Source: Candidatus Cloacimonadota bacterium
GTDB lineage: Bacteria; Cloacimonadota; Cloacimonadia; G963667145
Length of the DNA: 64,000 nt
Direction of reading: 5' to 3'
Assembly (NCBI GenBank): GCA_963676515.1
Contig: OY781061.1
Location: forward strand, 143,041 to 207,040
The notes below the pieces were generated by a model that made no database searches, was not told the DNA's origin, and saw only the letters and a program-made list of their open reading frames with translations. The position numbers were made by a program, and so were the translations under genes. Within the stretch, counting starts at the first letter, position 1. Each line of letters opens with the position of its first letter. This document shows positions 13,592 to 46,296 of this stretch, piece by piece.

Positions 13592-14527
13592 CTATTTAGC
13601 GGCTAAATTCAAATCGGTAGATTTACTAAGATAAGGTTCGGGGTTTCTATAACTTCCATATCTACGCACTTCGTAATGCAAATGGGAACCTGTAGACCTG
13701 CCAGTAGATCCCATATAGCCGATTATTTCACCTTTATTAATTCTTTGCCCTCTTTCCACTAGTACTTCTGACAAGTGAGCATAACGCGTGGAAAAACCAT
13801 ACTTGTGTCTAATTATTATATTTTTCCCAAAACTTCCCGAACTGGCACTTTTAGACATAATTACCACACCGTTGGCAGTAGCGTGAACGGAAGTTCCCTT
13901 TCTGTTGGCTATATCGATGCCTTCGTGAAATATTTTCCTGCCCAAAATCGGGTGAACTCTATAACCGTAAGGACTAGTAACATAACCATACACTGGATAA
14001 ATAGTCGGTGTATTTTCGTACATATCTTGACGAAACTCACTATTTTTTTTCAACTCAGACATCAATTCAGTTTCTAGTTCCACTCTAACTATAAGTTGTT
14101 CCAATTGTAATTTCAAAAAAGCACAATCTAACCTAAGATCAGAAGGAAGCTTCGAGGTAGCACTATCCAAAGAAGGAACACCACCAATACCCATCTGACG
14201 AATCTGTGGATCGACTGGCTTGAAATTTCTTTGCTTGCGGATTTGACTTTCCCAAGAACGAACAGCACCTAGCTTAGCCTTTACAGAATCTATAGCTTGA
14301 TTAAACTCACTGAGCTGATTTCTAAGTATTTTATTCTCTTCTTCTAACATTTCTTGTTGATCTATCTTGTCAAAATAAGAGCCGACAGTGCTCATCTTCC
14401 ACAAAAAAATGCACAATGTCAAGCTAAAAAGGAAAAGGAAAGATAGAAAAGTTTTGTTGGAGAAAGAGAAAGTATAGCTTCTCACCCACTCTATATGTCC
14501 AAAACTAAAAAACCATCTTTTTTTCAA
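13592..14527 (-). CDS. M23/LytM-family peptidoglycan endopeptidase with N-terminal TM anchor and coiled coil
   Basis: 311 aa. The catalytic motifs HEGIDI and GSHLHYEV are intact. A coiled-coil segment lies upstream, as in EnvC/NlpD-like proteins. Confidence 0.8.
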   Translation of the reverse strand: MKKRWFFSFGHIEWVRSYTFSFSNKTFLSFLFLFSLTLCIFLWKMSTVGSYFDKIDQQEMLEEENKILRNQLSEFNQAIDSVKAKLGAVRSWESQIRKQRNFKPVDPQIRQMGIGGVPSLDSATSKLPSDLRLDCAFLKLQLEQLIVRVELETELMSELKKNSEFRQDMYENTPTIYPVYGYVTSPYGYRVHPILGRKIFHEGIDIANRKGTSVHATANGVVIMSKSASSGSFGKNIIIRHKYGFSTRYAHLSEVLVERGQRINKGEIIGYMGSTGRSTGSHLHYEVRRYGSYRNPEPYLSKSTDLNLAAK

Positions 14528-14677
14528 TTTTGACCTCTCCTTTTATTCTTTTGTTATTAGATAAAACCTTTCTATTAAAGACATAAAGCAAATTTGTTAT
14601 AGCTGTGTCAATTTCTTTTTACAACTTTTTGTTTTTCAAGGCGTTTTGCGTTTTTCCCCGATTATCTTTCTTAACGA

Positions 14678-15934
14678 TTATCTTATCTTATCGGATATTA
14701 TTTGTATGACCTCTTGGTAATGGCTGTCTTCTACGACTATCACAGCTGTAGCGGAGATTTGCTCAAAACTAAAATCGATAATAGGTAAATCTTGCAAATC
14801 GGCAACAAAAGACAAAACTTTTGCCCAGTCTAATCCTTGCCCAACTAAGCCCAAAACGGTGTATTTCTCTTTGTACAATACAAGTTTACATTCCAGCTCT
14901 TCGGGTAATTTGTCGGTCTCGTACTTACCATAAATATATGCGTAGTCTGCCGTAAATCTGCTAAAAATTGATTTGAAGCCTAAGTTTTTCAACGCAGATA
15001 TATCTTTAGCCAACTCTCTCTGATCTAAATTTTCTTTGTTTATGCTTATCTTAGAAAGGTTTTTAACACCCGAAACTGCAACCACAGGCATTTTTTTTAC
15101 TTCTCTTTGGCAAGAGATAGTTGTTCCCTTGTCTTCTGGTCTCAAAGTATTTTTTATTTGAATAGGAATACCCGCTGCTGCCACAGGTGATATCGCCTCA
15201 CTGTGGAAAACATTCGTCCCAAAGCAAGCCATCTGCCGAAGCTCGGCGTAAGTTATCTCGGGTACAAAAGAGGGGTTATCTACAATTCGCGGATCAGCAG
15301 TTAACACTCCTGAAACATCCGTCCAATTTTGATAAACATCAGCTTGAGCACAAACAGCCAAGATGGCACCAGTAATATCCGATCCTCCTCGTGAAAAAGT
15401 TTTAATTTTACCATCTTTATCCAAACCATAAAATCCCGGCACTATGGTCGAAATATTTCTATCCAAAATTTTTGCCCCTAACTCATAAGTAAGAGAATCG
15501 ATACTCCCATCATCTCTCAAACGAACAAATTCTGCAGCATCTACAAAGCGAAACCCCAAATATTCACTAATGAGTAAGGCGTTAAGATATTCTCCCCTAG
15601 AGGCTACAAAATCCTGACTAACTCCCTGCAATATCTCTTTTGCAATAGCATCCAAAGCTTCCAAAACCGCCTTACCTTCTACTGCAAGCCCCTTTATCAT
15701 CAACTCAAATCTAGATTTTATCTCTAAAAAAATGTTACCAAATTTTGATTCTTGAGAAGTATTAGCAGCCAAAGAATAAAGCAAATCGGTTACTTTAATG
15801 TCTTGGTCAAATCTTTTTCCAGGAGCAGAAACCACTACCATAGAAACTTCAGTGACACTTTTGATTATTTTCGCTACCGCTTTAATTTTGGTAGCTTCTG
15901 CTAAAGATGTGCCACCAAACTTATAAACTATCAT
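14678..15934 (-). CDS. ask: Aspartate kinase
   Basis: 418 aa. It has the MIVYKFGGTSLA N-terminus, FSRGGSD, and a C-terminal ACT-like region. It starts only 26 nt downstream of the IclR gene, which leaves no room for a lysine riboswitch. Confidence 0.85.
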   Translation of the reverse strand: MIVYKFGGTSLAEATKIKAVAKIIKSVTEVSMVVVSAPGKRFDQDIKVTDLLYSLAANTSQESKFGNIFLEIKSRFELMIKGLAVEGKAVLEALDAIAKEILQGVSQDFVASRGEYLNALLISEYLGFRFVDAAEFVRLRDDGSIDSLTYELGAKILDRNISTIVPGFYGLDKDGKIKTFSRGGSDITGAILAVCAQADVYQNWTDVSGVLTADPRIVDNPSFVPEITYAELRQMACFGTNVFHSEAISPVAAAGIPIQIKNTLRPEDKGTTISCQREVKKMPVVAVSGVKNLSKISINKENLDQRELAKDISALKNLGFKSIFSRFTADYAYIYGKYETDKLPEELECKLVLYKEKYTVLGLVGQGLDWAKVLSFVADLQDLPIIDFSFEQISATAVIVVEDSHYQEVIQIISDKIR

Positions 15935-15960
15935 CTATTTCTCCTTAAAAATTCACTTCC

Positions 15961-16719
15961 TTAAGTTTTTCTAATTTGCTTCGTTATCTCAAAAGCTGCC
16001 TTAATCACATCATCAACATGAGCAGTAACTTTTTTTGAGGAAATCCTTATGCTAGGTCCAGAAAAAGACAAGCATGCCAAAACCTCATCCTCAACTCCAA
16101 AAATAGGAGCACTCACAGAGACAAGCTCATCCGAAAACTCTTTATCTTCTACGGCATAACCTTGGTTTTTGCATTTTTCCAGCTCTTTTTCCAACTCTTT
16201 TCGATCGGTGATAGTATACTTACTCAGCTGGATAAATTCCATCTTGTCCAACAACTTCTCGCGTCTGGTTTTAGTCATATACGCCAAAAACAATTTGCCA
16301 GAAGAGCAAGAATAAAGGGGGAAAACTGATGTTTTTTCAGGATTAAGCATTAGATGGTGTTCGGGTGATTTAATGCTGTGAATAGCAAAAACTTTGCTCT
16401 CTACCATCGTAGTTAGGTAAACATTTTCGTGAACAATATTCATAAGTTTTTCCATCTCTGGCTCTGCCACACTTTTTAAAACTTTGGTAACAGGAGCGGT
16501 ACGCCCCAAAGATAAAAGCTTAAAAGTCAGATTATATCCATTTTCACCTTTGTAAATATAGCCCACCTCTATAAGAGTGGCCAAAAGTCGATAAGTATTT
16601 GTCTTATTGAACCTTAATTTTTTGGTAATCTCTGGTGCAGTAATAGGCTGGTTGGCAGCGATACACTCCAAGAGACGAAAGGCTTTTCCCACCGAAGAAG
16701 ACACATTATATTTTGCCAT
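15961..16719 (-). CDS. IclR-family transcriptional regulator
   Basis: 252 aa. The N-terminal wHTH is KAFRLLECIAANQPITAPEITKKL, followed by an IclR-type effector domain. Confidence 0.85.
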   Translation of the reverse strand: MAKYNVSSSVGKAFRLLECIAANQPITAPEITKKLRFNKTNTYRLLATLIEVGYIYKGENGYNLTFKLLSLGRTAPVTKVLKSVAEPEMEKLMNIVHENVYLTTMVESKVFAIHSIKSPEHHLMLNPEKTSVFPLYSCSSGKLFLAYMTKTRREKLLDKMEFIQLSKYTITDRKELEKELEKCKNQGYAVEDKEFSDELVSVSAPIFGVEDEVLACLSFSGPSIRISSKKVTAHVDDVIKAAFEITKQIRKT

Positions 16720-16846
16720 AGCAATCCTTTTTTGTTTTCAAATTTCAAGTAAACAGTTAAATTATGAAAAATATGTCAATAATTATTAATTTAGAAAAGT
16801 AAAAAAATCTATCAAGCTTTCATTTAAGAAAAAAACTCTCAAAGTC

Positions 16847-17569
16847 TTAGAATTCTTTCTTGTTCAAACTACTATAAACATAATCTATCATGGTAAGAAA
16901 ATCAAACACTGGAAGCCCTGTTGCTCTTTGTACAACAGCCCCATAAGGGGGCAGCATACTGCATTCTAAAAGAATAGCTCCGATGCTTTTATCTTTTTTT
17001 TGAAGTAACAACGCTGCGTCTATTACTTCTTTTTCTATGGTAGCCTTATCTAAAAAACCAGATTCCGCTATCACGGTTTGTTTAAAAGCAGGTGATTCTT
17101 CCAATCCCACAATTATCAGCTTATCGTCTTTTTCCAATCCTATCTTCTGGAAAACCTTTTCCGTGAGCACTTCAGCATTTGCGGTGATAATACCTAATTT
17201 TTCTTTGCTTTTTAGCATCGACCTGATAAACGGAATTTGTAGCAAACTAGACAAAAAAACTGGCAAATTTAGTTGCTCTTTGAGTTCCTCTTGATAGATA
17301 GCCATAAATCCACAATCACCTGTGATTGCCCTTACACCTTCTCTTTGTAGCTCCTTGGCTGCCTCTATCATCGCAAAAAGGTATTTTGAATCCAATTCAA
17401 AAATTTTTTGAACAGTCAATCCTTGCACTTTTTTGAAGCGAACAGGATAATCATAACTAGTAGCATTTCCCACATCTCCAGGGATAAAAGGACAAAAAGT
17501 GTCCAGCAAAAGTATCCCAATAGATTCTCCATAGCTAGTTTGTCCTTTTTTCGCTTTATAAATCAACAT
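16847..17569 (-). CDS. Asp/Glu/hydantoin racemase-fold protein (EutA-like)
   Basis: 240 aa. Two candidate catalytic Cys sit in TGDCGFM and LLECSML, as in two-thiol racemases and maleate isomerases. Size and fold class match the ectoine-utilisation protein EutA. The call was made by eye. Confidence 0.55.
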   Translation of the reverse strand: MLIYKAKKGQTSYGESIGILLLDTFCPFIPGDVGNATSYDYPVRFKKVQGLTVQKIFELDSKYLFAMIEAAKELQREGVRAITGDCGFMAIYQEELKEQLNLPVFLSSLLQIPFIRSMLKSKEKLGIITANAEVLTEKVFQKIGLEKDDKLIIVGLEESPAFKQTVIAESGFLDKATIEKEVIDAALLLQKKDKSIGAILLECSMLPPYGAVVQRATGLPVFDFLTMIDYVYSSLNKKEF

Positions 17570-17618
17570 ACCTCCTTATAAGTAATACAAAAGAACAATT
17601 CTGTTTATACAAAAGAAA

Positions 17619-18785
17619 CTAATCTACATCAAAAGGGTAGTCAAAAAGATGCTCAATCCCATCATCGGTTACCCTAATACTGGCGTCCAACTCATATCCT
17701 ACATCTTCCTGCCATATACCTGGAATGAGGTGCAAAGTCATATTTTTTTGTACTATGGTCTTGTCACCTTCTCGCACGCTGATGGTTTGCTCTCCCCAAT
17801 CTGGTGGATAATTTACTCCTATCGAATAACCTAGTCGTGCCTTTTTTTCCACTCCGTGGCGTGCAATATAATCTCGCCAAATCTTTTCTATAGACTCTAT
17901 ACTCACCCCTGGCTTGATGCTATCTAAAGTAGTTTGCAAGCCATCTTTTACCACCTGAGAGACTTTTTTCATCTTTTTGGGCATCTGTGTTCCTAAGAAA
18001 ATCGTCCGAGCGATAGGACAATGGTAGTGTCTATATGTACCGCAGAGCTCCAGAAGCACTGGCTCGTTTGCCTGATAGACTGCCTCCGTCCAAGTAAGAT
18101 GAGGAGTCTTGATTGCCTCACCGCTCATCATCAAAGGCACAATAGCAGGATAGTCGCCAGCATACTCGCCCACCCCTTCATACTCTGCTCTCACAATCTG
18201 CGCTGCAACATCACACTCTCTTGCTCCAACTTTTATGTATTTTACCGCTGTTTCCATCACCTTTTCCGCTATTTTTCCAGCTATTTTCATAAACCTAATT
18301 TCAGCTTCCGACTTTATCACTCTCACCCAATTTACCAAAATATTCGCATCGACAAAAATAGCTTCGGGCAAACCTTTATGCAACACTTGAAAAGATTTGT
18401 GAGTGAAATAGAACTGATCAGACTCCACCCCTATTCTTTTTTTTTGCCAACCTTTTGCTTTTATAATATCGACGACAAAATCCATCGGATGACAAATAAT
18501 CGAATGAACATAATCATCGGCATACTGATATATATTTTCTTTCGCCAGATATGAGGTTATCCTTGCACCATTGGCATCCATCCCTCTGCCTATCCAAGTG
18601 GGCTCTTCTTGATCCAAACTAACTAGAACGCATTGGTGAACATAAAAACTCCACCCATCATAGCCTGTCAAATAGTTCATATTGGCAGGATGCGACACTA
18701 TCAAAAGCTCTATGCCATTTGCTACCATACTTTTTTTGGTATTCTCTACACGCTTACGATACTCACTTTTTTCAAAGAGTAACAT
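17619..18785 (-). CDS. M24 creatinase/prolidase-fold hydrolase, DoeA/EutD (ectoine hydrolase)-like
   Basis: 388 aa. I recognise the blocks NYLTGYDGWSFYVHQCVL, GDYPAIVPLM, YRHYHCPIARTIFLG and GYSIGVNYPPDWGE as characteristic of the DoeA/EutD clade rather than Xaa-Pro peptidases. This is from memory and unverified. Confidence 0.65.
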   Translation of the reverse strand: MLLFEKSEYRKRVENTKKSMVANGIELLIVSHPANMNYLTGYDGWSFYVHQCVLVSLDQEEPTWIGRGMDANGARITSYLAKENIYQYADDYVHSIICHPMDFVVDIIKAKGWQKKRIGVESDQFYFTHKSFQVLHKGLPEAIFVDANILVNWVRVIKSEAEIRFMKIAGKIAEKVMETAVKYIKVGARECDVAAQIVRAEYEGVGEYAGDYPAIVPLMMSGEAIKTPHLTWTEAVYQANEPVLLELCGTYRHYHCPIARTIFLGTQMPKKMKKVSQVVKDGLQTTLDSIKPGVSIESIEKIWRDYIARHGVEKKARLGYSIGVNYPPDWGEQTISVREGDKTIVQKNMTLHLIPGIWQEDVGYELDASIRVTDDGIEHLFDYPFDVD

Positions 18786-18907
18786 TTTATTCCTCCTTCA
18801 AATTGCAAAACACAAAATAAAGCAACAAAAAAGCAATTCTCAATTATCTCTATATTTCTTAATTTAAATAAATTTCCCTAGCTTGTTATAAGCTATACAG
18901 TAGCAAT

Positions 18908-20188
18908 TTACCCAGCCATAGAAATGCTAGGTAGGAATGTAGCAATCTGAGGAAAAACTATGATTAAAACAGTTACCAAGATTAAAATTAAAATGAACGG
19001 TGGCGTCTCTCGGATTACTTCCAGATATGGTCGTTTGAAGATCAATTGCGCTGTAAAAATATCACAACCAAAAGGTGGTGTAGCAGAGCCAATGGCAGCT
19101 TGCAAAGTGACCAAAGTTCCCAAGAAAATCGGGTCTATACCAGTAGAAGCTACATAAGGAGAAAAGATAGGAGACAACACATAAATTGCCACGATAGGAT
19201 CCACGAACATGCATGCAATAAAATAAGAGATGACAACTACCACAATAACTTTCAACTGAGTAACATCTTGACCCATAATAAGAGGCATAAACTCTTGGGG
19301 AAGTCGCAAAAAGCTAATCAGCCAAGAAAAAGCTTGCCCCGCACCGACCAAGATAAAAACAACAGCCGTGATGACACCTGTGTCCATGGCTATGCTTACC
19401 AGTTTTTTGAAATTCAAAGTTTTAAAAAGTACGCCTTCCAAAAAGATAGCATAAAGTACCGCTACAGCAGCAGCCTCTGTTGGACTAAAGAATCCAGCAT
19501 AGATACCACCCACAATAATCAGCGGAAAACCTAAAACAGGATAACCCTCTCTAAAAGATTGTTTTTTCTCTTCCCAAGTAGCTTTTGGCAACATTCCTAC
19601 CTTCTTTTTTTTGGAATAAAAATAGCAATAAATAGAAAATAGAAGAAAAATAAGCAAACCTGGTAATATCCCTGCCAAGAAAAGTTTTCCCACCGATGTA
19701 CTCGTAACAACTCCATACACAATAAACCCAATACTAGGCGGAATCAAAAAAGCTATATCACTGGAGTTGATGATAAGCCCCAAAGTAAATGGGCTAGAGT
19801 ATCCAGCCTTCAAAAGCATAGGTCTCATAGTGCCACCTATGGCTGCCACAGTTGCTTGTGTAGAGCCAGAGACAGCTCCAAACATCGTACAACTAGCGTT
19901 AGTAGTGATGGCAAGACCTCCAGGCAAGTGTCCTACCATTGCCTTAATCATATTAATAAGCCTCTTGGCAGCTTGCCCTGAAGTGATGATATTCGCACCC
20001 AAAATAAACATCGGAACGCATACCAAAGCCTGTGGCGTAAGACCAGTTATCACCTGTTGCACAAAAATGACAGGCGAGAGATCAGGCATATTCACTCCTA
20101 CAAACATCAACAAAGAGCCCAGTATGACCACCATAAAGGGCACAGCCATAAAAAGCATCAAAATCATACTAATCCATAATAAACTCAT
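18908..20188 (-). CDS. dctM: TRAP transporter large permease subunit
   Basis: 426 aa with ~12 TM. It completes the canonical DctP-DctQ-DctM order. Confidence 0.85.
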   Translation of the reverse strand: MSLLWISMILMLFMAVPFMVVILGSLLMFVGVNMPDLSPVIFVQQVITGLTPQALVCVPMFILGANIITSGQAAKRLINMIKAMVGHLPGGLAITTNASCTMFGAVSGSTQATVAAIGGTMRPMLLKAGYSSPFTLGLIINSSDIAFLIPPSIGFIVYGVVTSTSVGKLFLAGILPGLLIFLLFSIYCYFYSKKKKVGMLPKATWEEKKQSFREGYPVLGFPLIIVGGIYAGFFSPTEAAAVAVLYAIFLEGVLFKTLNFKKLVSIAMDTGVITAVVFILVGAGQAFSWLISFLRLPQEFMPLIMGQDVTQLKVIVVVVISYFIACMFVDPIVAIYVLSPIFSPYVASTGIDPIFLGTLVTLQAAIGSATPPFGCDIFTAQLIFKRPYLEVIRETPPFILILILVTVLIIVFPQIATFLPSISMAG

Positions 20189-20201
20189 AAAACATCCTTA
20201 T

Positions 20202-20741
20202 CTAATATTCGATAACATCGTCTGAATACTCGGAAGTAACCTCTGGAGATATCCAAATATCATCACCTTTCTCCTTGATGTTTTTGATAATCGTCAGCGT
20301 ATACTGTATGCCTGCTGAAAAGAAACCCAGCGGGATGATAATCACAAAAATCCAAAATGGCAACCGAAGGGCTGAACTTGATTGTGCTCGAGTAAAAACC
20401 ATAAGAACATACTCAGCAGAAAAGTAAGCCATGGTAAACATCGTAATAGCACTAGCTACGCAGATAAAATATTCAATGCACTTCTCTACAGATTTAGGAG
20501 CTAAATCTATGAGTGCTCCCATTCTGATATGACGACCTTTTCTCGCGGCATAACTCACACCCACAAAAGTGATAAAGATAGTCAAAAATTCGCTGACCTC
20601 CTCAGCAAAGTAGATGCTGGTAAAAAAAGTCCTAGCAATGACATTTATGATAAGCGTAATGAAGAGTGCAAAAATGCAAAAGGTGATACAGCTTGTTTCA
20701 AAAAAATTCAAAACTTTTACAACTTTGTTTTCTCCTTCCAT
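20202..20741 (-). CDS. dctQ: TRAP transporter small permease subunit
   Basis: 179 aa with 4 TM, located between the DctP and DctM genes. Confidence 0.75.
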   Translation of the reverse strand: MEGENKVVKVLNFFETSCITFCIFALFITLIINVIARTFFTSIYFAEEVSEFLTIFITFVGVSYAARKGRHIRMGALIDLAPKSVEKCIEYFICVASAITMFTMAYFSAEYVLMVFTRAQSSSALRLPFWIFVIIIPLGFFSAGIQYTLTIIKNIKEKGDDIWISPEVTSEYSDDVIEY

Positions 20742-20816
20742 AATTCCTCCTTAATGGGAAAAGTTTTGCACAGCCTTTCTTTTTTCAAGAAAAAACTGTG
20801 CAAAAAATCACAATTT

Positions 20817-21881
20817 TTACTTAACTCCCAAAGCTTTCTTAGCATCAGCTATGTCTTTGAGTAGTGCTTTGAGCATAACATCTGCATCATCGCCTCCCAC
20901 TTTCTCAAATTTTGCAAAAACTTTTTCAGCCTTGACTTTCATCTTCTTGACTTGATTATCGTTGTATTCATAGAATTTAACTTTTGGTCTTTCTTTAGCT
21001 ATTTTAGCTTTGTCATCGGCGTTTCTTTGCTTGATCCATTTACCAGCTGGTATGATAGATTCTACCCAAAACTCTTTCATCATTTCTTGTTTTTCTGAGC
21101 TTAGAGAGTTATAAAAATCCAAATTTACTGTGGGGATGCTGACGAAAACTTCAGCCCAAAACTGAGTAAAATAGTCGGTTACTTCATAGAATTTCATACT
21201 ATAATCGGCGAACATCGGGTTAATTTGAGCATCCAATAATCCTGTTTGTAGCCCACTATAGATTTCACCATAAGACATAGGTGTAGAGGTCATCCCATAA
21301 GACAACAAGTTTTCTACCAAAAGCTTAGATCCCATAACTCTTGTTTTCATTCCTTGAATTTTACTGATTTTGTCGGTAGGTTTTTTGGAGGTAACCCATT
21401 GCCAGCCTTCGAACATCATCGCAAGAGGAAGGAGTCCTTTCTCTTTAAACTTTTCCTCTAACATAGGGAAAAACTTGCCGTTGCGAGTAACCCAATCGAT
21501 TACCTCTATTGTTTTCTCTCTTGGCCAAATATAGTTCAAACACAAAACTTGAGCTTGCGGTACAAAGGCACTTATCCATGCATAATCTGAAAAGACAAAC
21601 TTAGCCACGCCCATTTGACACAACTCGTTGATATCACGATTGTCTCCAATGGTTCCATATGGATAGACGATTATTTGCATATCACCGTCTGTTTGTTTTT
21701 TCATACTTTCAGCAAAATTGTTTGCCCACACAGTCATAAAATCGCCCTCGATCTCTTCGGAGGCGAATTTTGCCTTCACTTCAGAACTTTTCCCCCAAAA
21801 TGCATACAAACCAGTAGTAAAAAGTCCCATTATTAAAACTAGACTTAAAATTCTCTTGCTCATTTTTTCTCCTTTTTTCAA
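20817..21881 (-). CDS. dctP: TRAP transporter substrate-binding protein
   Basis: 354 aa with a signal peptide. GMKTRVMGS contains the conserved carboxylate-binding Arg context of the DctP family. The start may be Met7 (21863). It overlaps the M20 gene stop by 4 nt. Confidence 0.8.
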   Translation of the reverse strand: MKKGEKMSKRILSLVLIMGLFTTGLYAFWGKSSEVKAKFASEEIEGDFMTVWANNFAESMKKQTDGDMQIIVYPYGTIGDNRDINELCQMGVAKFVFSDYAWISAFVPQAQVLCLNYIWPREKTIEVIDWVTRNGKFFPMLEEKFKEKGLLPLAMMFEGWQWVTSKKPTDKISKIQGMKTRVMGSKLLVENLLSYGMTSTPMSYGEIYSGLQTGLLDAQINPMFADYSMKFYEVTDYFTQFWAEVFVSIPTVNLDFYNSLSSEKQEMMKEFWVESIIPAGKWIKQRNADDKAKIAKERPKVKFYEYNDNQVKKMKVKAEKVFAKFEKVGGDDADVMLKALLKDIADAKKALGVK

Positions 21882-23065
21882 TTTTCTCCATCTTCCAAAT
21901 ACTGACTTACAATCTCTACAAAAAATTTCACTCCGTTTTTCATCACCTCCTCATCTACATTAAATTTTGAGTTATGATGGGCATAATCAGAGCCTTTTTG
22001 GCTATTCTTACAACCCAGATGAATAAATACAGAAGGTACTCGATCGGCAAAAGCAGAAAAATCTTCACTCGCCAAAGAAGCGTATTCACGAAGATTTTTT
22101 TCGCCTACTATATTACCCAAGACCTTCCTCGCCATATTAACCATAGCGCTATCGTTCACTACTACATCATTTTCCCGCTGCATTTGGATTTGCACCTTAC
22201 ATCCATGAAGTTGACAAACCTGCTCAACTTTTTCTCGGAAGAGGATGGCAGGATCATCGCTTCTATCTTCTTTAGGTTGGAAAAGATAACGAATAGTCCC
22301 TTCCAAATAAGCATTTTCAGGAATAACATTGTTTTTTTGCGAGCCCCCTTTAATTTTGGTAAACATTATGACAGTGGGTTTGAGAGCACCGAGTTTCCGT
22401 GTCTGGATCGCTTGCATAGACAAAATAACATCCGCAGCAGCAATGATAGGATCTATAGCATTCTCGGGGGCTCCCGTGTGTCCATCTTTCCCAATAATCT
22501 TAATCTTAAACACATCCATATTGGACATAATCGCACCACTTTTCACGCCAACTGTGCCACTAGGCAAAAGCGACCAAATATGAGTAGCTACACACGCGTC
22601 CACCTTGGGATTGTCCAACACACCTTCCAATATCATCTGTTCTGCCCCTGCTGTCTCTTCGTTGGGCTGAAAGATAAATTTAACATTGCCTTTAAATTTA
22701 TGTTTGTTTTCAGACAAAACTTTTGCTGCTACCAAAAGCATAGCCATATGAGCATCGTGCCCACAGGCGTGCATCAGTCCAGGATTGAGAGATTTATACT
22801 CTACCTGCGTCTCCTCTTCGATAGGCAAAGCATCCATATCTGCACGCAAGGCGATGGTTTTGCCTGCCCTCTTTCCGATAAGAGTAGCTACCACTCCTGT
22901 GGTAGCTACTCTCTTTGTCTGTAAACCAAGATTTTGTAAATACGCTTCTATCTTCTTAGCTGTCTCAAATTCGTGAAAACCAAGCTCGGGATATCTGTGA
23001 AAATCACGACGCAACTCAACCAACTCTGGCTCTAAAGATAAAATAGTTCTATCACATTCATCCAT
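21878..23065 (-). CDS. M20D-family amidohydrolase (N-acyl-amino-acid deacylase / hippurate hydrolase type)
   Basis: 395 aa. Metal-site blocks are MHACGHDAH and QPNEETAGAEQM, and a dimerisation lid domain is present. Confidence 0.85.
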   Translation of the reverse strand: MDECDRTILSLEPELVELRRDFHRYPELGFHEFETAKKIEAYLQNLGLQTKRVATTGVVATLIGKRAGKTIALRADMDALPIEEETQVEYKSLNPGLMHACGHDAHMAMLLVAAKVLSENKHKFKGNVKFIFQPNEETAGAEQMILEGVLDNPKVDACVATHIWSLLPSGTVGVKSGAIMSNMDVFKIKIIGKDGHTGAPENAIDPIIAAADVILSMQAIQTRKLGALKPTVIMFTKIKGGSQKNNVIPENAYLEGTIRYLFQPKEDRSDDPAILFREKVEQVCQLHGCKVQIQMQRENDVVVNDSAMVNMARKVLGNIVGEKNLREYASLASEDFSAFADRVPSVFIHLGCKNSQKGSDYAHHNSKFNVDEEVMKNGVKFFVEIVSQYLEDGEN

Positions 23066-23066
23066 T

Positions 23067-24089
23067 TTAGATCAAATCTCTTTTAATCAATGTTTCGGCA
23101 ATCTGGACAGAATTAAGTGCTGCCCCTTTACGAATATTGTTCGAAACTACCCACAAATTAAGACCATTTTCTATGCTCATATCTTTACGAATCCTACCTA
23201 CGAAAGTGTCATCCTCTTTGTTTGTCATAAGAGGTGTCGGATATATCTCTTGCGAAGGATCGTCCATCACCTGTACGCTTTCGGCGGCAGCCAATAGTTC
23301 TCTAGCCTTTTCTACGGAGATATTTTTCTCTGTCTCTACATTGACCGACTCGCTGTGTCCATACCAGACGGGAACTCTAACACAAGTAACTGAAGTTTCG
23401 ATGCTCTTATCCAGAATCTTTTTTGTTTCATTCACCATCTTCCACTCTTCTTTGGTATACCCTTCCTCTTGGAAAACATCTATGTGAGCAAGGCAGTTAA
23501 AAGCTATTTGCTTTGAGTAAGCTATAGGCTTTGTAATCTTTCCTTTTTCCAAATACTCCTTGCTCTCAGTTGCCAAACCTTGGAAAGCTTTTATGCCTGA
23601 ACCTGATACAGATTGGTAGGTAGAGACTACCACCCTCTTTATTTTCGCGTAATCGTGCAAAGGCTTGAGCACAACCATCAACTGAATGGTGGAGCAGTTT
23701 GGATTGGCGATAATTCCTTTGTGCCAGTCCAAGTCTTGCGGATTGACCTCTGGCACCACCAGCGGACAGTCTGGATTCATTCTCCATTGAGCACTGTTAT
23801 CCACCACCACAGCACCTGCTTTGGCTGCTATAGGAGCCAAAACAAGACTAGCTTCCCCTCCTGCTGAGAAGATAGCTATATCAACGCCTTGAAAATTCTT
23901 GGCATTAGCCTCTACACAAGCAAACTCTTGCCCGTTAAACTTAACTTTTTCGCCTTCTTTTTCTTTCACATCCATAGGAACGAAAGTATACATCGGAAAA
24001 TTTCTTCTTTCCAAAGTCCTGATCATCTCGCTACCGACTATCCCCAAAGCTCCCACAACCGCTACCGTATATTTTTCTTTTTTACCCAT
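23067..24089 (-). CDS. asd: Aspartate-semialdehyde dehydrogenase (canonical Asd)
   Basis: 340 aa. It has the VAVVGALGIVG Rossmann motif and the active-site Cys in IANPNCSTIQ. Confidence 0.9.
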   Translation of the reverse strand: MGKKEKYTVAVVGALGIVGSEMIRTLERRNFPMYTFVPMDVKEKEGEKVKFNGQEFACVEANAKNFQGVDIAIFSAGGEASLVLAPIAAKAGAVVVDNSAQWRMNPDCPLVVPEVNPQDLDWHKGIIANPNCSTIQLMVVLKPLHDYAKIKRVVVSTYQSVSGSGIKAFQGLATESKEYLEKGKITKPIAYSKQIAFNCLAHIDVFQEEGYTKEEWKMVNETKKILDKSIETSVTCVRVPVWYGHSESVNVETEKNISVEKARELLAAAESVQVMDDPSQEIYPTPLMTNKEDDTFVGRIRKDMSIENGLNLWVVSNNIRKGAALNSVQIAETLIKRDLI

Positions 24090-24115
24090 TTTAATTCACC
24101 CCTTAAAAAAAACTA

Positions 24116-25486
24116 TCACTCTTTAATTTTCCCAGACTCTATATCTTTGATCACATCGATTATAATCTCAACACCTTTACTCAATAGTTCTTTTGTGATA
24201 ACCAAAGGAGGTAAAAGGCGAGCTACATTGTTATAGTGCCCTCCCACCTCTATCATCACTCCTCTTTGATGAGCGTGCTTTCTAATCAATTTGCCTAGAA
24301 CAGAAGCTGGTTCTTTCGATTTTTTGTCTTTAACCATCTCGATGGCAATCATAAGACCGATGCCTCGCACCTCTCCTACGATGGAGGAAGTTTTAGCAAA
24401 CTCTTGCAATCTTTTGGTAGCCATATCACCTACTAAATTTACATGCTCCAGCAAGTTTACCTCTTTCATCCAGTCCAGAGCAGCCTTACCTGCAGCGAAG
24501 GCGATCATGTTCCCTCTAAAAGTACCGATAGATTTTCCAGCAGGCATCGTGTTTAATTTTTCTTTGTAAGCAATCGCCGAGATAGGAAGACCAATGCCTC
24601 CCAAAGCTTTGCTAATAGTTACAATGTCTGGGACTATATCAAAATGTTCAAAAGCGAACATTTTCCCTGTTCTGCCTAATCCTGCTTGGATCTCATCGCA
24701 AATCATCAAAACATCGTGCTTATCACAAATCTCTCGAACTCTTTTCATAAACCTAGTAGTCGGGATTATAGTACCCCCTTCTCCTTGCACAGACTCCAAG
24801 ATCACAGCCGCTGGTTTGGCAAAGCCAGAATGGCTATCGCTCAAAACTCTTTCCAAATTCTCAGCCGCTTGCAAATCCACATCTTCGTCGGGACAACCAA
24901 AAGGGTTTCTATATTTATAAGGAAAAGGAATAAAAGATACACCTGGTACAGTAGAACCCACACCATGGTGGGAATCATCACAAGTCAACGCCAGAGCAAC
25001 ACCAGTCATCCCGTGATAAGCTCCTTCAAAAGCTATTATAGTATCTCTGCCTGTGTTGTATTTTGCCAGCTTTATAGCTTGCTCCACAGCGTCACTGCCT
25101 GTTGGTCCACCAAAAAATAAACGAGTTAGCTCTTTGGGTAGTAACGATTTGAGCGTAGCCACCATTCCTTCTCTCTCGACAGTGGGTATATCAAGTGTGT
25201 GAGTTATTTTGTCCAATTGCTTGTGAGCTGCTGCCAAAACCACAGGGTGAGAATGCCCTAAAGCCATCACTCCCGCTCCAGAAAACATATCAATGTAAAC
25301 ATTGTCGTCCTCATCGACCAAAGTTGCTCCTTTTCCAGTTTTCAAACTCATCGGCATCCCTTTGGAATATGAAACTGCCGAACCTTCATTGCCGGCTTGA
25401 AAATCTAATATCTTTTTAGATTTTGGTCCCGGTGGCACCACATTGATAATTGGTGCTTCGTTGATAGATAATTGTTCCAACTTCAT
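24116..25486 (-). CDS. Class III PLP aminotransferase, diaminobutyrate-2-oxoglutarate transaminase-like (EctB/Dat/DoeD type)
   Basis: 456 aa. Motifs are DEIQAGLGRTG, TISKALGGIGLP (Schiff-base Lys) and the GTFRGN block, which I associate with DABA transaminases. Confidence 0.8.
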   Translation of the reverse strand: MKLEQLSINEAPIINVVPPGPKSKKILDFQAGNEGSAVSYSKGMPMSLKTGKGATLVDEDDNVYIDMFSGAGVMALGHSHPVVLAAAHKQLDKITHTLDIPTVEREGMVATLKSLLPKELTRLFFGGPTGSDAVEQAIKLAKYNTGRDTIIAFEGAYHGMTGVALALTCDDSHHGVGSTVPGVSFIPFPYKYRNPFGCPDEDVDLQAAENLERVLSDSHSGFAKPAAVILESVQGEGGTIIPTTRFMKRVREICDKHDVLMICDEIQAGLGRTGKMFAFEHFDIVPDIVTISKALGGIGLPISAIAYKEKLNTMPAGKSIGTFRGNMIAFAAGKAALDWMKEVNLLEHVNLVGDMATKRLQEFAKTSSIVGEVRGIGLMIAIEMVKDKKSKEPASVLGKLIRKHAHQRGVMIEVGGHYNNVARLLPPLVITKELLSKGVEIIIDVIKDIESGKIKE

Positions 25487-25590
25487 TTTTTTTACTCCTT
25501 GCTCTTTAATTTAGAAGTAAACCCCTTTATATGGAAACAGTCCATGCAGCGAGTCACACTTTCTTTATGATTCTTAACAGCCTTTAGTTT

Positions 25591-25621
25591 CACTATATGA
25601 ACCAAAAACCACTATGTGAAC
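25591..25621 (-). promoter_or_regulatory. Candidate operator: two direct 12-nt boxes CACTAT(A/G)TGAAC
   Basis: The boxes lie at 25591-25602 and 25610-25621 (11/12 identical, 19-bp period). They sit just downstream (on the minus strand) of a TTGACA at 25652-25647, in the 254-bp leader of the aminotransferase operon. A partial third copy ATATGAAC lies at 25676-25683. Confidence 0.3.
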
Positions 25622-25740
25622 TAAAATGATTTCATTATTCTCAATCTGTCAACTTAAAAGTTATATTTTTTATAAATATGAACTCAAAATATGATAACGA
25701 AAGGCTTTTTAAAGAATCTAAACAAAAAAATAAAAGGAAA

Positions 25741-26472
25741 TTATGAGAAAATTTTTAGCTCTGCTTTACCAGATTGTAACTCAAGATACGAATTGTGCAC
25801 TAGCCAATCGCCACAATTAGCGTAAAGACCGGAAGACACAGACTGCAAAAGAGGATGGTGCGTATGCCCCATCACGACAAGGTCATAGCCTTCTTTGCTT
25901 ATTTTGGTTTGAGCAAATTGTAAAAGTTCTGCCTCTTTTTTCGTAAGTTTTTTTTCGTCCACTTTGCGAGAACGAGAACTTCTTGATGCCAAAGAACCAA
26001 TCCTAATGGCTAACGCTGGATGAACTATTCCAAAAAATAACTCGAAAATTTTGGAGCGAATAAGAAGTTTGTAAAATTTGTAACGAAAATCGTTTTCCCC
26101 ATGACTATCACCGTGAGTGACAAAAATTTTACGATTGTCTATTTGCAAGACACACTCAGATTTGAAAATCTCGATCCCCAACTGATTTTGCAAAAAATAC
26201 CGAAAATAGAAGTCGTGGTTACCTGCAATCATCTTGATTTTACAACCGCTATCTCGCAAAGATTTCAAGGCGTAATATACAGGAAAAAACTCAGAAAGCA
26301 CGATGTTTTTCCAGTCGTACCAAAGGTCGAAAAAATCTCCCGCAATAACTAAAATATCGGCTTTACCTGTGATACTTTCCAAAAATTGTACCACTGTTTT
26401 TTGCCTTGCTATATCTTCTGCCGTTTTGGGTACAGGCTTCAGATGAGTATCGGAAATAAAGTACGCCTTCAT
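25741..26472 (-). CDS. lpxH: UDP-2,3-diacylglucosamine diphosphatase (LpxH-like calcineurin-type phosphoesterase)
   Basis: 243 aa. The motifs ISDTHL, AGDFFDLW, AGNHDF, THGD, GHTHHP and CGDW occur in LpxH order and spacing. Confidence 0.7.
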   Translation of the reverse strand: MKAYFISDTHLKPVPKTAEDIARQKTVVQFLESITGKADILVIAGDFFDLWYDWKNIVLSEFFPVYYALKSLRDSGCKIKMIAGNHDFYFRYFLQNQLGIEIFKSECVLQIDNRKIFVTHGDSHGENDFRYKFYKLLIRSKIFELFFGIVHPALAIRIGSLASRSSRSRKVDEKKLTKKEAELLQFAQTKISKEGYDLVVMGHTHHPLLQSVSSGLYANCGDWLVHNSYLELQSGKAELKIFS

Positions 26473-31003: not shown

Positions 31004-31035
31004 TAAAAAAACCCGTAATACCGTGTAGCACGGCT
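31004..31035 (-). terminator. Hairpin plus U7 tract just upstream of the rny RBS
   Basis: The minus strand reads AAGCCGUG-CUA-CACGG UAUUACGGG UUUUUUU. The U tract is not directly adjacent to the best stem, so terminator strength is unclear. Confidence 0.4.
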
Positions 31036-31170
31036 TATCTTGAACTTAACTTCAAGGTGGGATATTCATCAAGCTACTCCGCAAATCCGAGTACAATCAC
31101 GGCTCAAGCTAAGAGCAGAAGCTTACATCCCTTATTATAACTAGTTCAAATGATATAACTAGCCGTCTAT
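31011..31170 (-). ncRNA. Structured RNA candidate (6S-RNA-like long interrupted hairpin) between zapA and rny
   Basis: Hand fold of the minus strand gives these stems: ACGGCU(31166-31161)/AGCCGU(31035-31030), UUGAACU/AGUUCAA, GGGAU/AUCCC, AAGCU/AGCUU, and CUGCUC/GAGUAG. An 11/12-nt internal bubble separates stems 2 and 3. The region has no ORF. Its position after zapA mirrors the E. coli zapA-ssrS arrangement. Confidence 0.35.
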
Positions 31171-31178
31171 CACTAATA

Positions 31179-31445
31179 TTACAGGCTTTTATCCAATAAA
31201 ATTTCTATTTTGCCAATAGTTTCTTCACTATCTATCTGATCTGACAAAAAATCCAAACACAGCAAGGTCAATATCTTTATCTGCGAGGTCGAATCTCCCA
31301 TTTTCCTTGATTTTTGACCTATCAATCTGTTTAATTTTTTGACACATTCTTCCAACTTGTCTTTACTTTCGGCATTTACTTTGAACTCATAAGGAAGACC
31401 GAAAATATTAACTTGAACTGAAACTTTCTCATCAGGAGTTATCAT
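31179..31445 (-). CDS. zapA: Cell division protein ZapA
   Basis: 88 aa. The N-terminal beta segment VQVNIFGLPYEFKV is followed by a C-terminal helix. It lies downstream of pheT, as in Bacillus. Confidence 0.7.
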   Translation of the reverse strand: MITPDEKVSVQVNIFGLPYEFKVNAESKDKLEECVKKLNRLIGQKSRKMGDSTSQIKILTLLCLDFLSDQIDSEETIGKIEILLDKSL

Positions 31446-36679: not shown

Positions 36680-39600
36680 TTACCAATTTGGTTTTTTATC
36701 TGATGTCCATTCAGAAGAAGTGGATGAATCGAAAGAGCTATAATTAGTTACAGACGAAACATCCCAGCCACTGATGTCTTGCTTGAAAACAGATGCACCA
36801 TAAAACATAGCAAACATATTGGTAACATTACTCACATCCCAGCCACTGATGTCTTGATTGAAAACTTTTGCATAGTAAAACATAGAGCTCATATCGGTAA
36901 CTTTGCTTACGACCCAATTATTAAGGGAGCCATTAAATGCAGATGCACCAGAAAACATCCTACTCATATTGGTAACACTACTAACATCCCAATTATTAAG
37001 GGAGTCATTAAATGTGGGCACATTGTAAAACATCCAACTCATATCTGTAACTTTGCTTACGACCCAATTATCAAGAGGTTTATTGAATACTGTCGCACCA
37101 GTAAACATCTTACTCATATTGGTAACATTACTCACATCCCAGTCATTAAGAGGTTTGTCATATGCAGATGCCATTTTAAACATACTACTCATATTGGTAA
37201 CATTACTCACGACCCAATTATTGATGTTTTGATTAAAAGCGGTTGCAACATAAAACATACAACCCATATCGGTGACATTGCTCACATCCCAATCATTAAG
37301 CGGCTTATTGAATACAGATGCCTGATAAAACATAGCAAACATATTGGTAACACTACTCACGACCCAATTATTGAGTGAGTCATTAAATGCAGATGCACCA
37401 TAAAACATATTTCTCATATTGATTACATTACTCACATCCCAGTCATTGAGACTTTGATGGAAAGTTGCTGCCTCTGCAAACATAAAACTCATATCGTTTA
37501 CACTACTAACATCCCAACCACTAATGTCTTGATTGAAAACTTCTGCTTTTCTAAACATAAAATTCATATCAGTTACATTGCTCACATCCCAATTATTGAT
37601 GTTTTGGTTAAAAGCTTCTGCACCATAAAACATAGAGCTCATATCTGTGACATTGCTCACATCCCAGCCGCTGATGTCTTGATTGAAAGTGGTATTTTCT
37701 TTAAAAAGCTCGCTCATATCGGTAATACCAGCAACATTTATCTTAGTAACATCTTCACCATCGGCAATCATCTGTAATAACTCTTCTCTAGACATCATAA
37801 TATTCGGTTTCTTGTCGTCTGTCCACTCACTCGAAGTGCCAAAATTGTAAAAACTGTAATTAGTCAAAGCAGAAAAAATATCCCAACTACTAATATCTTG
37901 TTTGAACGCGGTTGCATTACAAAACATGTAACTCATATTAGTAACATTACCCACATTCCAATCATTGAGGGAATCATTAAATGCACTTGCATCTCTAAAC
38001 ATATTACTCATATTAGTAACATTAATCACATCCCAGCCACTGATGTCTTGGTTAAAAGCAGATGCACCAGAGAACATAGAACTCATATCGGTAACATTGC
38101 TTACATCCCAATCATTAAGAGGTTTGCTAAATGCTGATGCACTACAAAACATCATACTCATATCTGTAATCTTGCTCACGAACCAACCATTAATGTCTTG
38201 ATTAAAAGTTCTTGCACCGTAAAACATCCCACTCATATCGCTAACATTGTTCACATCCCAATCATTAAGAGGCTTATCAAATGAAGATGCATAACAAAAC
38301 ATATAGCTCATATCGGTAACATTACTTACGACCCAATTATTGAGTGGCTTATCGAATACAAATGCATGATAAAACATATAGCTCATATCAGTAACATTGC
38401 TTACATCCCAAGTACTAAGTGAGTCATTAAATGCAAATGCATTATAAAACATAGAGCTCATATTGGTAACATTGCTTACATCCCAGCCACTGATGTCTTG
38501 ATTGAAGGTGGTATTGTTTTTAAAAAGCTCGCTCATATCTGTAATACGAATAGTATTTGCCTTAGTGACATCATCACCTTTTTCTATTTTGCTCACAAGT
38601 TCTGCCTTAGTTAGTGGAAAATTTGGTTCGTTTATACTTTTCAATGCACTATAAAATGAAGTAAAAGCATCATATTTGCTAACCTTATCAACATTCCAAT
38701 TACTTATATCTTTATTAAATCTAAATGCCTGGTTAAACATACCACTCATATCAGTAACATTGCTCACATCCCAGCCGCTGATGTCTTGATTAAAAATTTT
38801 TGAATAGTTAAACATATTACTCATATCGGTAACTTTGCTCACAATCCAATTATTGAGTGAGTCATTAAATACATATGTTCTACTAAACATATCACTCATG
38901 TCGGTAACATTGCTTACGACCCAGCCGCTGATGTCTTTATTAAACTTCGTTGCATAATAAAACATCCCACTCATATTGGTTACATTGCTCACATCCCAGT
39001 TACTGATGTCTTGATTAAAGTTTCTAACTATTGAGCAAGAAGAAATAGTTTCGCCTCTTTCATCGGCAACTGCCTGCATCAAATCTGACATATCTGTAAT
39101 GCCAGAAACATTCACTCGAGTTACATACGCATTTAAACTCAACAAATACACAAGTATTTGCTTATTTATTTTTGGTTTCTCAGCATTTAACCAAAGAGAT
39201 GAAGTATTACCATCAAAACCATAAAAAGAGTACTTAGAAGTTAGACCCACTATGTCCCATTTGCTGAGATCTTGGTCAAAAGAGCTTGCATTAGAAAACA
39301 TACAATACATACTAATAACTTTACTCACATCCCAACTACTTATGTCTTGATTGAAAGCAGACGCACCAGAGAACATCGAAATCATATGAGTAACTTTACT
39401 CACATCCCAGTCACTGATATCCTGGTTAAAAGCAGAGGCACCAGAGAACATAGAAATCATATTGGTAACATTGCTTACATCCCAGTCACTGATGTCTTGA
39501 TTGAAAGTGGCATTATTTATAAAAAGGTCTTTCATAGCAATAATGCTAGAAACATTTGCTTGAGTTACATCCAAATTTTTTGCTATTCTATCCACTAACT

Positions 39601-46205: not shown

Positions 46206-46296
46206 CTTAACCTCTTCGTATTTTGGTTTGGACTACAAAAAAAGCTCTTTTCTTATTATGGAAAAAAGCTCTTTTAAATTTAAGACAGACAACGGT

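Follow-up and report, generated by a model that had tools for sequence, protein, structure and literature searches.

Ectoine is a major organic solute of saline habitats, and for a long time only aerobic Proteobacteria were believed to consume it (PMC5924519). A 2018 review restricted its consumers to Proteobacteria, with one Desulfovibrio (PMC5924519), and a 2026 survey widened the consumers to a few other groups (PMC13188858). In that survey (Appl Environ Microbiol 2026, PMC13188858) the putative clusters of Thermodesulfobacteriota and Bacillota comprise 9-13 co-directional genes, usually with two eutD and without eutE and ssd; amidohydrolase-containing clusters are described in Gram-positive bacteria (Bacillota), and the extra genes are left unassigned. 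The aerobic clusters compared here are doeABCD of Halomonas elongata, uehABC-eutABCDE-ssd-atf of Ruegeria pomeroyi and ehuABCD-eutABCDE of Sinorhizobium meliloti. We analysed a 64-kb stretch of DNA from a Candidatus Cloacimonadota bacterium, called the window throughout, in which the locus at 14678-25486 resembles these systems in part. Our reading, to which we give slightly better than an even chance, is that the locus holds an accessory ectoine cassette with its own aspartate-semialdehyde dehydrogenase (Asd) replacing the aldehyde dehydrogenase, next to a core aspartate kinase (Ask) able to make ATP.

Ten genes run head to tail on the minus strand from 25486 down to 14678, with checked coordinates for every open reading frame and intergenic distances ranging from a 4-nt overlap up to 127 nt. 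An earlier note on this DNA had listed eleven co-directional genes; the direction and the positions hold, and the number is ten, as no eleventh open reading frame fits in the gaps of 14678-25486. The sequence blocks quoted in that note (GTFRGN, NPNCST, LTGYDGWSFYVHQ, GDYPAIVPL, YRHYHCP and YPPDWGE) were all located in the translations, and its family assignments were borne out by NCBIfam and Pfam profile searches, for which the NCBIfam equivalog cut-offs are quoted below model by model. The window contains two adjacent units, namely an eight-gene accessory cassette (16847-25486) and a pair made of an IclR-family regulator gene and ask (14678-16719).

The step that DoeC/Ssd, an NAD-dependent aldehyde dehydrogenase, performs in aerobes is occupied by Asd. 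The first cassette gene (24116-25486) encodes a class-III aminotransferase (AT), predicted to be an L-2,4-diaminobutyrate (DABA):2-oxoglutarate transaminase, and asd (23067-24089) begins 26 nt past it. The encoded protein is a canonical phosphorylating enzyme of the EC 1.2.1.11 family, scoring 449 bits against TIGR01296 asd_B (cut-off 324) and 465 bits against NF011456 (cut-off 223), with the catalytic motifs NPNCST and GHSES present. Wherever a species-representative locus has the aminotransferase gene, asd comes next in the same orientation (23 of 23); the pair is never split, its adjacency spans at least two phyla, and the gap shrinks to 4 nt in Sediminispirochaeta smaragdinae. The window and 91 related loci were also searched by tblastn (E<=1e-5) with the EutA, EutE and Ssd proteins of S. 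meliloti, taken from the annotated ehu-eut cluster of pSymB. None of the three queries found a match in the window or in the 91 loci, so the aerobic deacetylase, the aldehyde dehydrogenase and EutA are missing family-wide; the Ssd query likewise detected no aldehyde dehydrogenase within 10 kb of the gene for the M24-family hydrolase in any of the 91 loci. A catabolic role is indicated because Asd is fixed directly past the predicted semialdehyde-producing aminotransferase in clusters without any other aldehyde-oxidising enzyme. The proposal of the earlier note that Asd sits where DoeC would be is upheld by these results, and we regard the substitution as well supported by gene context.

The copy number of asd points in the same direction. 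Desulfuromusa kysingii (locus L047) and a second Desulfuromusa carry an extra, resident Asd just upstream of the cluster, and in L047 as in L043 this second Asd lies just upstream of the IclR gene. The resident Asd is 55-57% identical to the cluster Asd and 51-55% identical to the window Asd, whereas the cluster Asd reaches 64% identity to the window Asd and 67% to that of S. smaragdinae and groups with the Spirochaete copies. To judge from these sequence relationships, the cluster Asd in Desulfuromusa is an additional copy. In the window lineage Asd comes and goes with the cassette and is not at the site in five of seven sister genomes; these five keep ask under selection without the cassette Asd, so another asd should exist elsewhere in their genomes. 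No second asd or ask was found in the 64-kb window.

The IclR regulator gene (15961-16719; Pfam HTH_IclR and IclR_C) is followed after 26 nt by ask (14678-15934; Pfam AA_kinase 139 bits). The 26-nt distance given in the earlier note is real, and no riboswitch, including the lysine type, or any other Rfam family was detected in 14400-26000, even at E<=1. These features allow an explanation in which the ten genes are a single ectoine operon, with Asd and Ask both dedicated to catabolism, standing in for DoeC and yielding ATP at substrate level. The co-directional arrangement of the ten genes with short gaps is in its favour, and so is the position of Ask at the end of the operon in S. smaragdinae, where ask lies 10 nt past the second hydrolase gene, and in Desulfuromusa. 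Six close relatives of the window Ask (64-79% identity) were found, five of which lie on contigs of ~1.54-1.59 Mb and the sixth on a JGI contig of 19.7 kb; with the window, the sister genomes (~1.55 Mb) number seven (L085, L086, L087, L095, L096 and L097 being the others). Their loci have in common the flanking order RNase Y, YmdB, FolD, MatE and metallophosphoesterase, then a variable region, and after it M23 peptidase, XseB, IspA, Dut, citrate synthase, NadB, NadA and NadC. L087 has the same ten-gene order as the window, its cassette proteins being 69-92% identical, which would also suit a single operon. However, in five of the seven sisters ask is retained at this position although the cassette is missing; four of these five also have IclR (L085, L086, L095 and L097), and L096 has ask alone. 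Over the seven syntenic sisters ask is thus present in 7/7, IclR in 6/7 and the eight-gene cassette in 2/7. L086 is the closest relative of the window by IclR (88%) and Ask (79%), though cassette-less.

The regulator and the kinase also own a promoter of their own. The A+T-rich spacer between the cassette and the IclR gene (16720-16846) holds the IclR-ask promoter with the conserved element TTAATAATTATTGACA, which is preserved in the window, in L087 and in the cassette-less L086, that is, upstream of IclR with or without the cassette. The ratios of nonsynonymous to synonymous substitution rates among the sister genomes, read with synonymous sites saturated, are 0.08-0.12 for ask and 0.04-0.15 for IclR, and both genes are under purifying selection. 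Compared with other clusters, Ask is the most divergent gene of the locus (38-45% identity), and it does not group with cluster Asks in the tree. A single ten-gene operon with dedicated copies is, on this evidence, improbable. Retention of ask in all seven sisters, five of them without the cassette, its separate conserved promoter and the purifying selection on it together mark Ask as a core gene of the lineage beside an accessory cassette; the claim of operon membership rather than a housekeeping lysC did not survive this comparison. Ask is not a dedicated pathway gene and is probably the general aspartokinase of the lineage. IclR is the sole regulator gene in the locus, in line with the earlier statement that it replaces the MocR/AsnC regulators, and neither EnuR (MocR-type) nor AsnC regulator genes were found in 14678-25486. 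It shares 34-44% identity with the IclR proteins heading related clusters, which are 38-96% identical among themselves, and probably controls the cassette and/or ask. As a separate observation, a transposase-like gene (HTH_28/rve_3) lies exactly at the cassette site of L086, which suggests that an insertion sequence brought about the loss of the cassette, or that the site is a hot spot for insertions.

The kinase itself scores 312 bits against NF006540 (cut-off 434) and 200 bits against TIGR00657 (cut-off 208.7). Its motifs KFGG, SRGGSD and ADPR are present and invariant in the alignment, as expected for the kinase domain of EC 2.7.2.4. The solved structure 3TVI aligns to Ask residues 2-305 and then stops. 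The C-terminus gives no Pfam ACT hit; it can nevertheless be aligned to the ACT regions of other Asks, lacking ~10 residues and keeping the VGxG motif. Loss of feedback control was considered and rejected, as the region aligns with ACT and has the same form in the cassette-less sisters.

The substrate was approached through the hydrolase and the importer. The M24 hydrolase (17619-18785) has TIGR02993 (ectoine_eutD) as its best NCBIfam model (438 bits, under the cut-off of 613) and, judged by overall similarity and conserved blocks, is closest to the solved DoeA of H. elongata (6TWK, 6TWJ; 350 bits), to which it is 42% identical across 382 residues; its identity to S. meliloti EutD is 45%. The best prolidase reaches 85 bits and PepQ 78 bits, which excludes a creatinase or prolidase identity and agrees with the DoeA/EutD-like assignment made earlier. 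The TRAP transporter consists of the solute-binding protein DctP (20817-21881), the small membrane subunit DctQ (20202-20741; Pfam DctQ 87 bits) and the large membrane subunit DctM (18908-20188; TIGR00786 338 bits, above cut-off), the last being 70-78% identical across related loci. The three best solved relatives of DctP are 3FXB, which is UehA with ectoine (163 bits), and 3GYY/2VPN, which are TeaA (136 bits), the next scoring 112 bits; the identities of these structures are from PMC5924519. DctP is therefore a predicted importer subunit of the ectoine-binding UehA/TeaA type, and the uehABC-like transporter suggested earlier finds its counterpart. Of the features that mark an ectoine cluster, the window thus has a DoeA/EutD-family hydrolase, with a score below the equivalog cut-off of 613 and 42-45% identity, and a predicted specific importer of the Ehu, Ueh or Tea kind by the likeness of DctP to UehA/TeaA.

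A related substrate, such as hydroxyectoine, N-acetyl-DABA taken up directly, homoectoine or another cyclic amidine or N-acyl diamino acid, would be compatible with the modest identity of M24 to characterised DoeA/EutD proteins and with the scores of M24, AT and the amidohydrolase, all below equivalog cut-offs. In many clusters there is also a second DoeA-type paralogue, a sign that more than a single substrate is handled. Against this, the closest solved relatives of DctP and M24 are ectoine-specific, and the window has no EutB or EutC homologue and no second DoeA-type hydrolase, the genes that accompany hydroxyectoine use elsewhere. In sister clusters a EutB homologue (411 bits, cut-off 413) is found past the hydrolase gene, along with a EutC-type gene and a second DoeA-type hydrolase, the EutB and EutC homologues being 44-46% identical to the S. 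meliloti proteins. Because these genes are not in the window, it looks like an ectoine-only version of the cluster. We consider a different substrate very unlikely, and ectoine, as predicted from the protein families, is the well-supported choice for the cassette. Apart from the window, the EutB/EutC homologues of S. smaragdinae (L081 11198-13178) also score 240 bits against BhcB (beta-hydroxyaspartate dehydratase) and 186 bits against BhcD (iminosuccinate reductase); by these similarities hydroxyectoine might be degraded via 3-hydroxyaspartate to aspartate, without prior conversion to ectoine.

The best NCBIfam models for AT (Pfam Aminotran_3 344 bits) are the DABA transaminase NF005393 (425 bits) and 'dat' TIGR00709 (376 bits), with the gamma-aminobutyrate (GABA) transaminase models lower at 309-319 bits. 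The DABA models outscore the GABA ones, and all scores are under their cut-offs. AT is only 28% identical to S. meliloti Atf and 68-76% identical to the AT of related clusters. The gene after asd (21878-23065) encodes an M20D amidohydrolase (M20), a predicted N-alpha-acetyl-DABA deacetylase, which scores 362 bits against TIGR01891, above cut-off, 383 bits against CpsA, and 296 bits against DoeB2 NF038260 (cut-off 550); it belongs to the same M20D superfamily as DoeB2 and falls outside that equivalog. Its best solved relatives are YxeP and ILR1-like aminoacylases, and it is present in every related locus with enough sequence. A eutD gene adjoining EutE/DoeB has been used to recognise such clusters (Mais et al. 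2020, as quoted in PMC8739950); here the hydrolase is accompanied by the M20D amidohydrolase instead. The earlier note had placed M20 where DoeB/EutE would be, and the unmatched EutE query is consistent with this. From its family, M20 is predicted to fill the functional place of DoeB/EutE, and an M20-type N-acetyl-DABA deacetylase is not new, as DoeB2 (NF038260) is a curated precedent. Within the M20 coding region, a terminator scan of the opposite strand returned a perfect 14-bp inverted repeat, AGAGTAGCTACCAC...GTGGTAGCTACTCT, at 22881-22912.

The set of enzymes also recalls arginine biosynthesis, with the class-III aminotransferase, semialdehyde dehydrogenase, amino-acid kinase and M20 deacylase parallel to ArgD, ArgC, ArgB and ArgE, and AT scores 386 bits against the acetylornithine-aminotransferase family model. 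An acetylated route would have AT, Asd and Ask act on N-acetylated intermediates, with M20 deacetylating N-acetyl-aspartate last. Yet Asd scores above the cut-off of the equivalog model for true Asd and shares 70% identity with a housekeeping Asd, so that a change of substrate is unlikely, and deacetylation precedes transamination in the aerobic pathway (PMC5924519). The chance of such a route appears close to negligible.

In the route we propose, the UehA/TeaA-like TRAP transporter would import ectoine, the DoeA-family M24 enzyme would open the ring to give N-alpha-acetyl-diaminobutyrate (N-acetyl-DABA), the M20D amidohydrolase would take off acetate to leave DABA, and the class-III aminotransferase would turn DABA into aspartate semialdehyde. 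The cassette Asd, with phosphate and NAD(P)+, would then oxidise the semialdehyde to aspartyl phosphate, and aspartokinase, here the neighbouring core Ask, would move the phosphoryl group to ADP and release aspartate and ATP, both enzymes running in a presumed direction opposite to biosynthesis. Asd is routinely assayed in the oxidative direction, and the aspartokinase equilibrium lies far towards ATP and aspartate. The two enzymes are formally like glyceraldehyde-3-phosphate dehydrogenase and phosphoglycerate kinase, and carbamate kinase, which has the same amino-acid-kinase fold as Ask, forms ATP in vivo. For these reasons the last two steps are chemically reasonable, and a gain of ATP via reversed Asd and Ask is plausible by analogy. 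Indirect backing for such a gain comes from S. smaragdinae and Desulfuromusa, whose operons include ask. The more general proposal, that anaerobes of the AT-Asd type pass the semialdehyde through Asd to aspartyl phosphate and through reversed aspartokinase to ATP, would mean substrate-level phosphorylation from unmodified biosynthetic enzymes, with the single core Ask of the window working in both directions; we put forward this proposal tentatively, as one that falls somewhat short of an even chance.

The related loci show how widely the arrangement is distributed. Our scan covered one genome per species and gave 576 stretches with M24 relatives, the 80 best of which were analysed (54-69% identity). 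The common core M20-DctPQM-Rac-M24, where Rac is a racemase-superfamily protein described below, is found in these best 80 of the 576 loci, usually with an IclR gene, and such a recurrence, over 80 species-representative genomes, puts the arrangement far outside what chance would give. The hosts of the best 80 include Spirochaetota (Sediminispirochaeta, Alkalispirochaeta and Sphaerochaetaceae), Clostridia (Gudongella, Soehngenia, Tindallia and Alkaliphilus), Syntrophomonadaceae, Halanaerobiales, Desulfuromusa, Atribacteria-type genomes and Desulfobacterales, and the cultured members of the carrier lineages are, we take it, strict anaerobes. Two types of cluster were distinguished. The Spirochaete/Desulfuromusa type has the order IclR-AT-Asd-M20-DctPQM-Rac-M24-EutB-EutC-second M24, often followed by Ask. 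In the Clostridia/Halanaerobiales type the place of AT and Asd is taken by a glutamate-dehydrogenase-family gene, and a gene for a EutB-like PLP enzyme often comes after, together with RidA. The Clostridia, Halanaerobiales and Atribacteria version, with a glutamate-dehydrogenase-family gene of 410 aa, was seen in L005, L006, L009, L017, L018, L036/L083, L044, L060-L067 and others, and it must handle diaminobutyrate by another route.

Extended clusters were found in deltaproteobacterial hosts. In D. kysingii (L047 11757-20853) the hydrolase gene is followed, in the same direction, by genes for a 1000-aa NAD-glutamate dehydrogenase, a proline-racemase-family protein and a TfrA/TfrB-type fumarate reductase, with ask last. 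L040 (10259-19274) has a similar extension (glutamate dehydrogenase, proline-racemase-family protein and TfrA/TfrB) plus a zinc alcohol dehydrogenase, and a related deltaproteobacterial contig carries the same genes as the D. kysingii extension. An Ask (P0206) is encoded on a contig as long as that of L040, outside the L040 stretch covered by the analysis. By its gene content the Desulfuromusa array looks like a complete fermentative operon, in which the amino acceptor would be regenerated by glutamate dehydrogenase, and reducing equivalents from that enzyme and from Asd would be consumed in fumarate reduction.

Several observations weigh against our reading, and some of them favour another explanation, in which Asd and Ask are purely biosynthetic neighbours and the semialdehyde goes to lysine, threonine and methionine or to an unlinked oxidation, with no gain of ATP. 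Asd and Ask are ordinary by sequence, and no protein feature that we could read marks a catabolic role; a signature separating the cluster Asd or Ask from housekeeping copies was sought and none was found. An Asd of Victivallales that stands beside homoserine dehydrogenase, a housekeeping context, is 70% identical to the window Asd, and on this ground a special subfamily of cluster Asds was rejected. A stand-alone Ask of Sphaerochaeta shares the 434-aa architecture of the cluster Asks. Ask is present in only 13 of 28 evaluable related loci, so that about half of the spirochaete-type clusters, those of Sphaerochaetaceae among them, have no ask, and the Clostridia/Halanaerobiales type manages without AT, Asd and Ask. 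Anaerobic use of the hydrolase system thus does not depend on Asd and Ask; clustered ask is frequent yet optional, and the cluster Asks are no distinct kind. In the window lineage Ask is a core gene, and the neighbour-joining Ask tree is unresolved, with a long branch and the window Ask not grouped with cluster Asks. The cassette Asd is only probably a second copy in the 1.58-Mb window genome, by inference from the sisters; the anaerobic lifestyle of the window organism is assumed from its relatives; and the scores of M24, AT, M20 and Ask are all under NCBIfam equivalog cut-offs.

The biosynthetic explanation nevertheless meets a series of difficulties. It leaves the AT-Asd adjacency of 23 out of 23, across at least two phyla and with gaps down to 4 nt, unaccounted for, as well as the gain and loss of Asd with the cassette in the window lineage and the second, differently related Asd beside the cluster in Desulfuromusa. 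In none of the 91 loci is the M24 gene accompanied by an aldehyde dehydrogenase within 10 kb, and there is no obvious reason for a biosynthetic asd inside an operon of transporter and hydrolase genes. We judge purely biosynthetic neighbours to be unlikely, and keep to an accessory cassette whose own Asd would replace the aldehyde dehydrogenase.

The last cassette gene (16847-17569) encodes Rac, an Asp/Glu-racemase-superfamily protein, which scores 298 bits against NF005679, above cut-off, and only weakly matches Pfam Asp_Glu_race. Its cysteines C86 and C203 are invariant in 60 orthologues. The protein had been described as an EutA-like two-Cys protein of racemase fold; the two invariant cysteines and the superfamily were confirmed, and the EutA label was rejected, since Rac belongs to NF005679 and BLAST detected no similarity to S. 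meliloti EutA. It has no NCBIfam EutA hit either, and no relative was found among solved structures.

The region upstream of the cassette (25487-25740, minus strand) holds promoter-like hexamers, two repeats and a conserved leader. The promoter scan upstream of AT gave TTCACA-17-TATAGT, and the two TTCAYATAGTG repeats lie at 25589-25620. The leader of ~45 nt, TGTGACTCGCTGCATGGACTGTTTCCATATAAAGGGGTTTACTTCT, at ~25500-25555 on the minus strand, is near-identical in L087 in spite of diverged surrounding sequence, and the palindrome ATGGA-N5-TCCAT lies within it. Since Rfam returned no match for the leader and its predicted folding does not surpass that of shuffled sequence (z = 0), the leader may instead be a site where a protein binds. 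An operator common to the AT upstream region, the IclR upstream region and related clusters was sought, and no consistent motif emerged.

Elsewhere in the window, a 1636-aa protein encoded at 36680-41590 on the minus strand has eleven DUF285 repeats (1047 bits) and fibronectin-type domains and is probably a surface protein. A 6S RNA gene lies at 31006-31190 on the minus strand, just downstream of the RNase Y gene, and two adjoining phosphofructokinase paralogues occupy 45108-47499.

The presence of this cluster family in fermenters, sulfur reducers and relatives of sulfate reducers suggests ectoine turnover in anoxic sediments, soda lakes and brines. If Asd and Ask do run in reverse, one ATP per ectoine would be gained at a step where aerobes gain none. 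Substrate-level phosphorylation would thereby gain a new example, as would the reuse of biosynthetic enzymes in catabolism, and a compatible solute would be a fermentable energy source for Spirochaetota and Desulfuromusa. The ATP hypothesis is testable in cultured carriers, namely Sediminispirochaeta smaragdinae, Desulfuromusa kysingii, Alkaliphilus peptidifermentans and Halanaerobium congolense. For annotation, Asd and Ask beside a transporter and hydrolases need not signal biosynthesis, and proximity alone is no proof of pathway membership, as ask illustrates.

Compared with the aerobic clusters, the window shares a DoeA/EutD-family hydrolase (42-45%), a TRAP binding protein of the UehA/TeaA type, a class-III aminotransferase step and, as predicted, aspartate as the end product; EutB and EutC homologues (44-46%) are shared by the sister loci only. 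It differs in having an M20D amidohydrolase and not EutE/DoeB, a phosphorylating Asd and not Ssd/DoeC, an NF005679 protein and not EutA, and IclR and not EnuR/AsnC. Its AT is, moreover, only 28% identical to Atf, and the hosts of related loci belong to anaerobic lineages. As in glyceraldehyde-3-phosphate dehydrogenase with phosphoglycerate kinase, oxidation of an aldehyde would yield an acyl phosphate, which would hand its phosphoryl group on to ADP; the carbamate kinase of the arginine deiminase pathway has the amino-acid-kinase fold in common with Ask. DoeB2 (NF038260) is a curated M20-family N(2)-acetyl-DABA deacetylase, against which the window M20 stays at 296 bits with a cut-off of 550 and below its CpsA score, and the window M24 reaches 217 bits with DoeA2 (NF038259), far below the 438 bits with classical DoeA (TIGR02993).

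The 2026 clusters (PMC13188858) and the loci described here evidently belong to one broad family. The Bacillales version has an aldehyde dehydrogenase and a homoserine dehydrogenase where the window has Asd, and the terms asd, semialdehyde dehydrogenase, aspartate kinase, aspartokinase, IclR, Spirochaet and anaerob are all absent from the text of that paper (PMC13188858). Our search of full-text literature, with subscription journals outside its scope, found no report of a catabolic, ATP-forming Asd and Ask, of anaerobic ectoine degradation via Asd and Ask, or of aspartyl phosphate in substrate-level phosphorylation. The nearest described link between an aspartokinase and ectoine is Ask_Ect, a specialised aspartokinase linked to ectABC(D) biosynthetic clusters (PMC5924519). 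In both cases the gene for an aspartokinase is found linked on the DNA to genes concerned with ectoine. Ask_Ect, however, feeds ectoine synthesis forward, whereas the window, which contains no ectA or ectC, places its aspartokinase in a context of uptake and hydrolysis.

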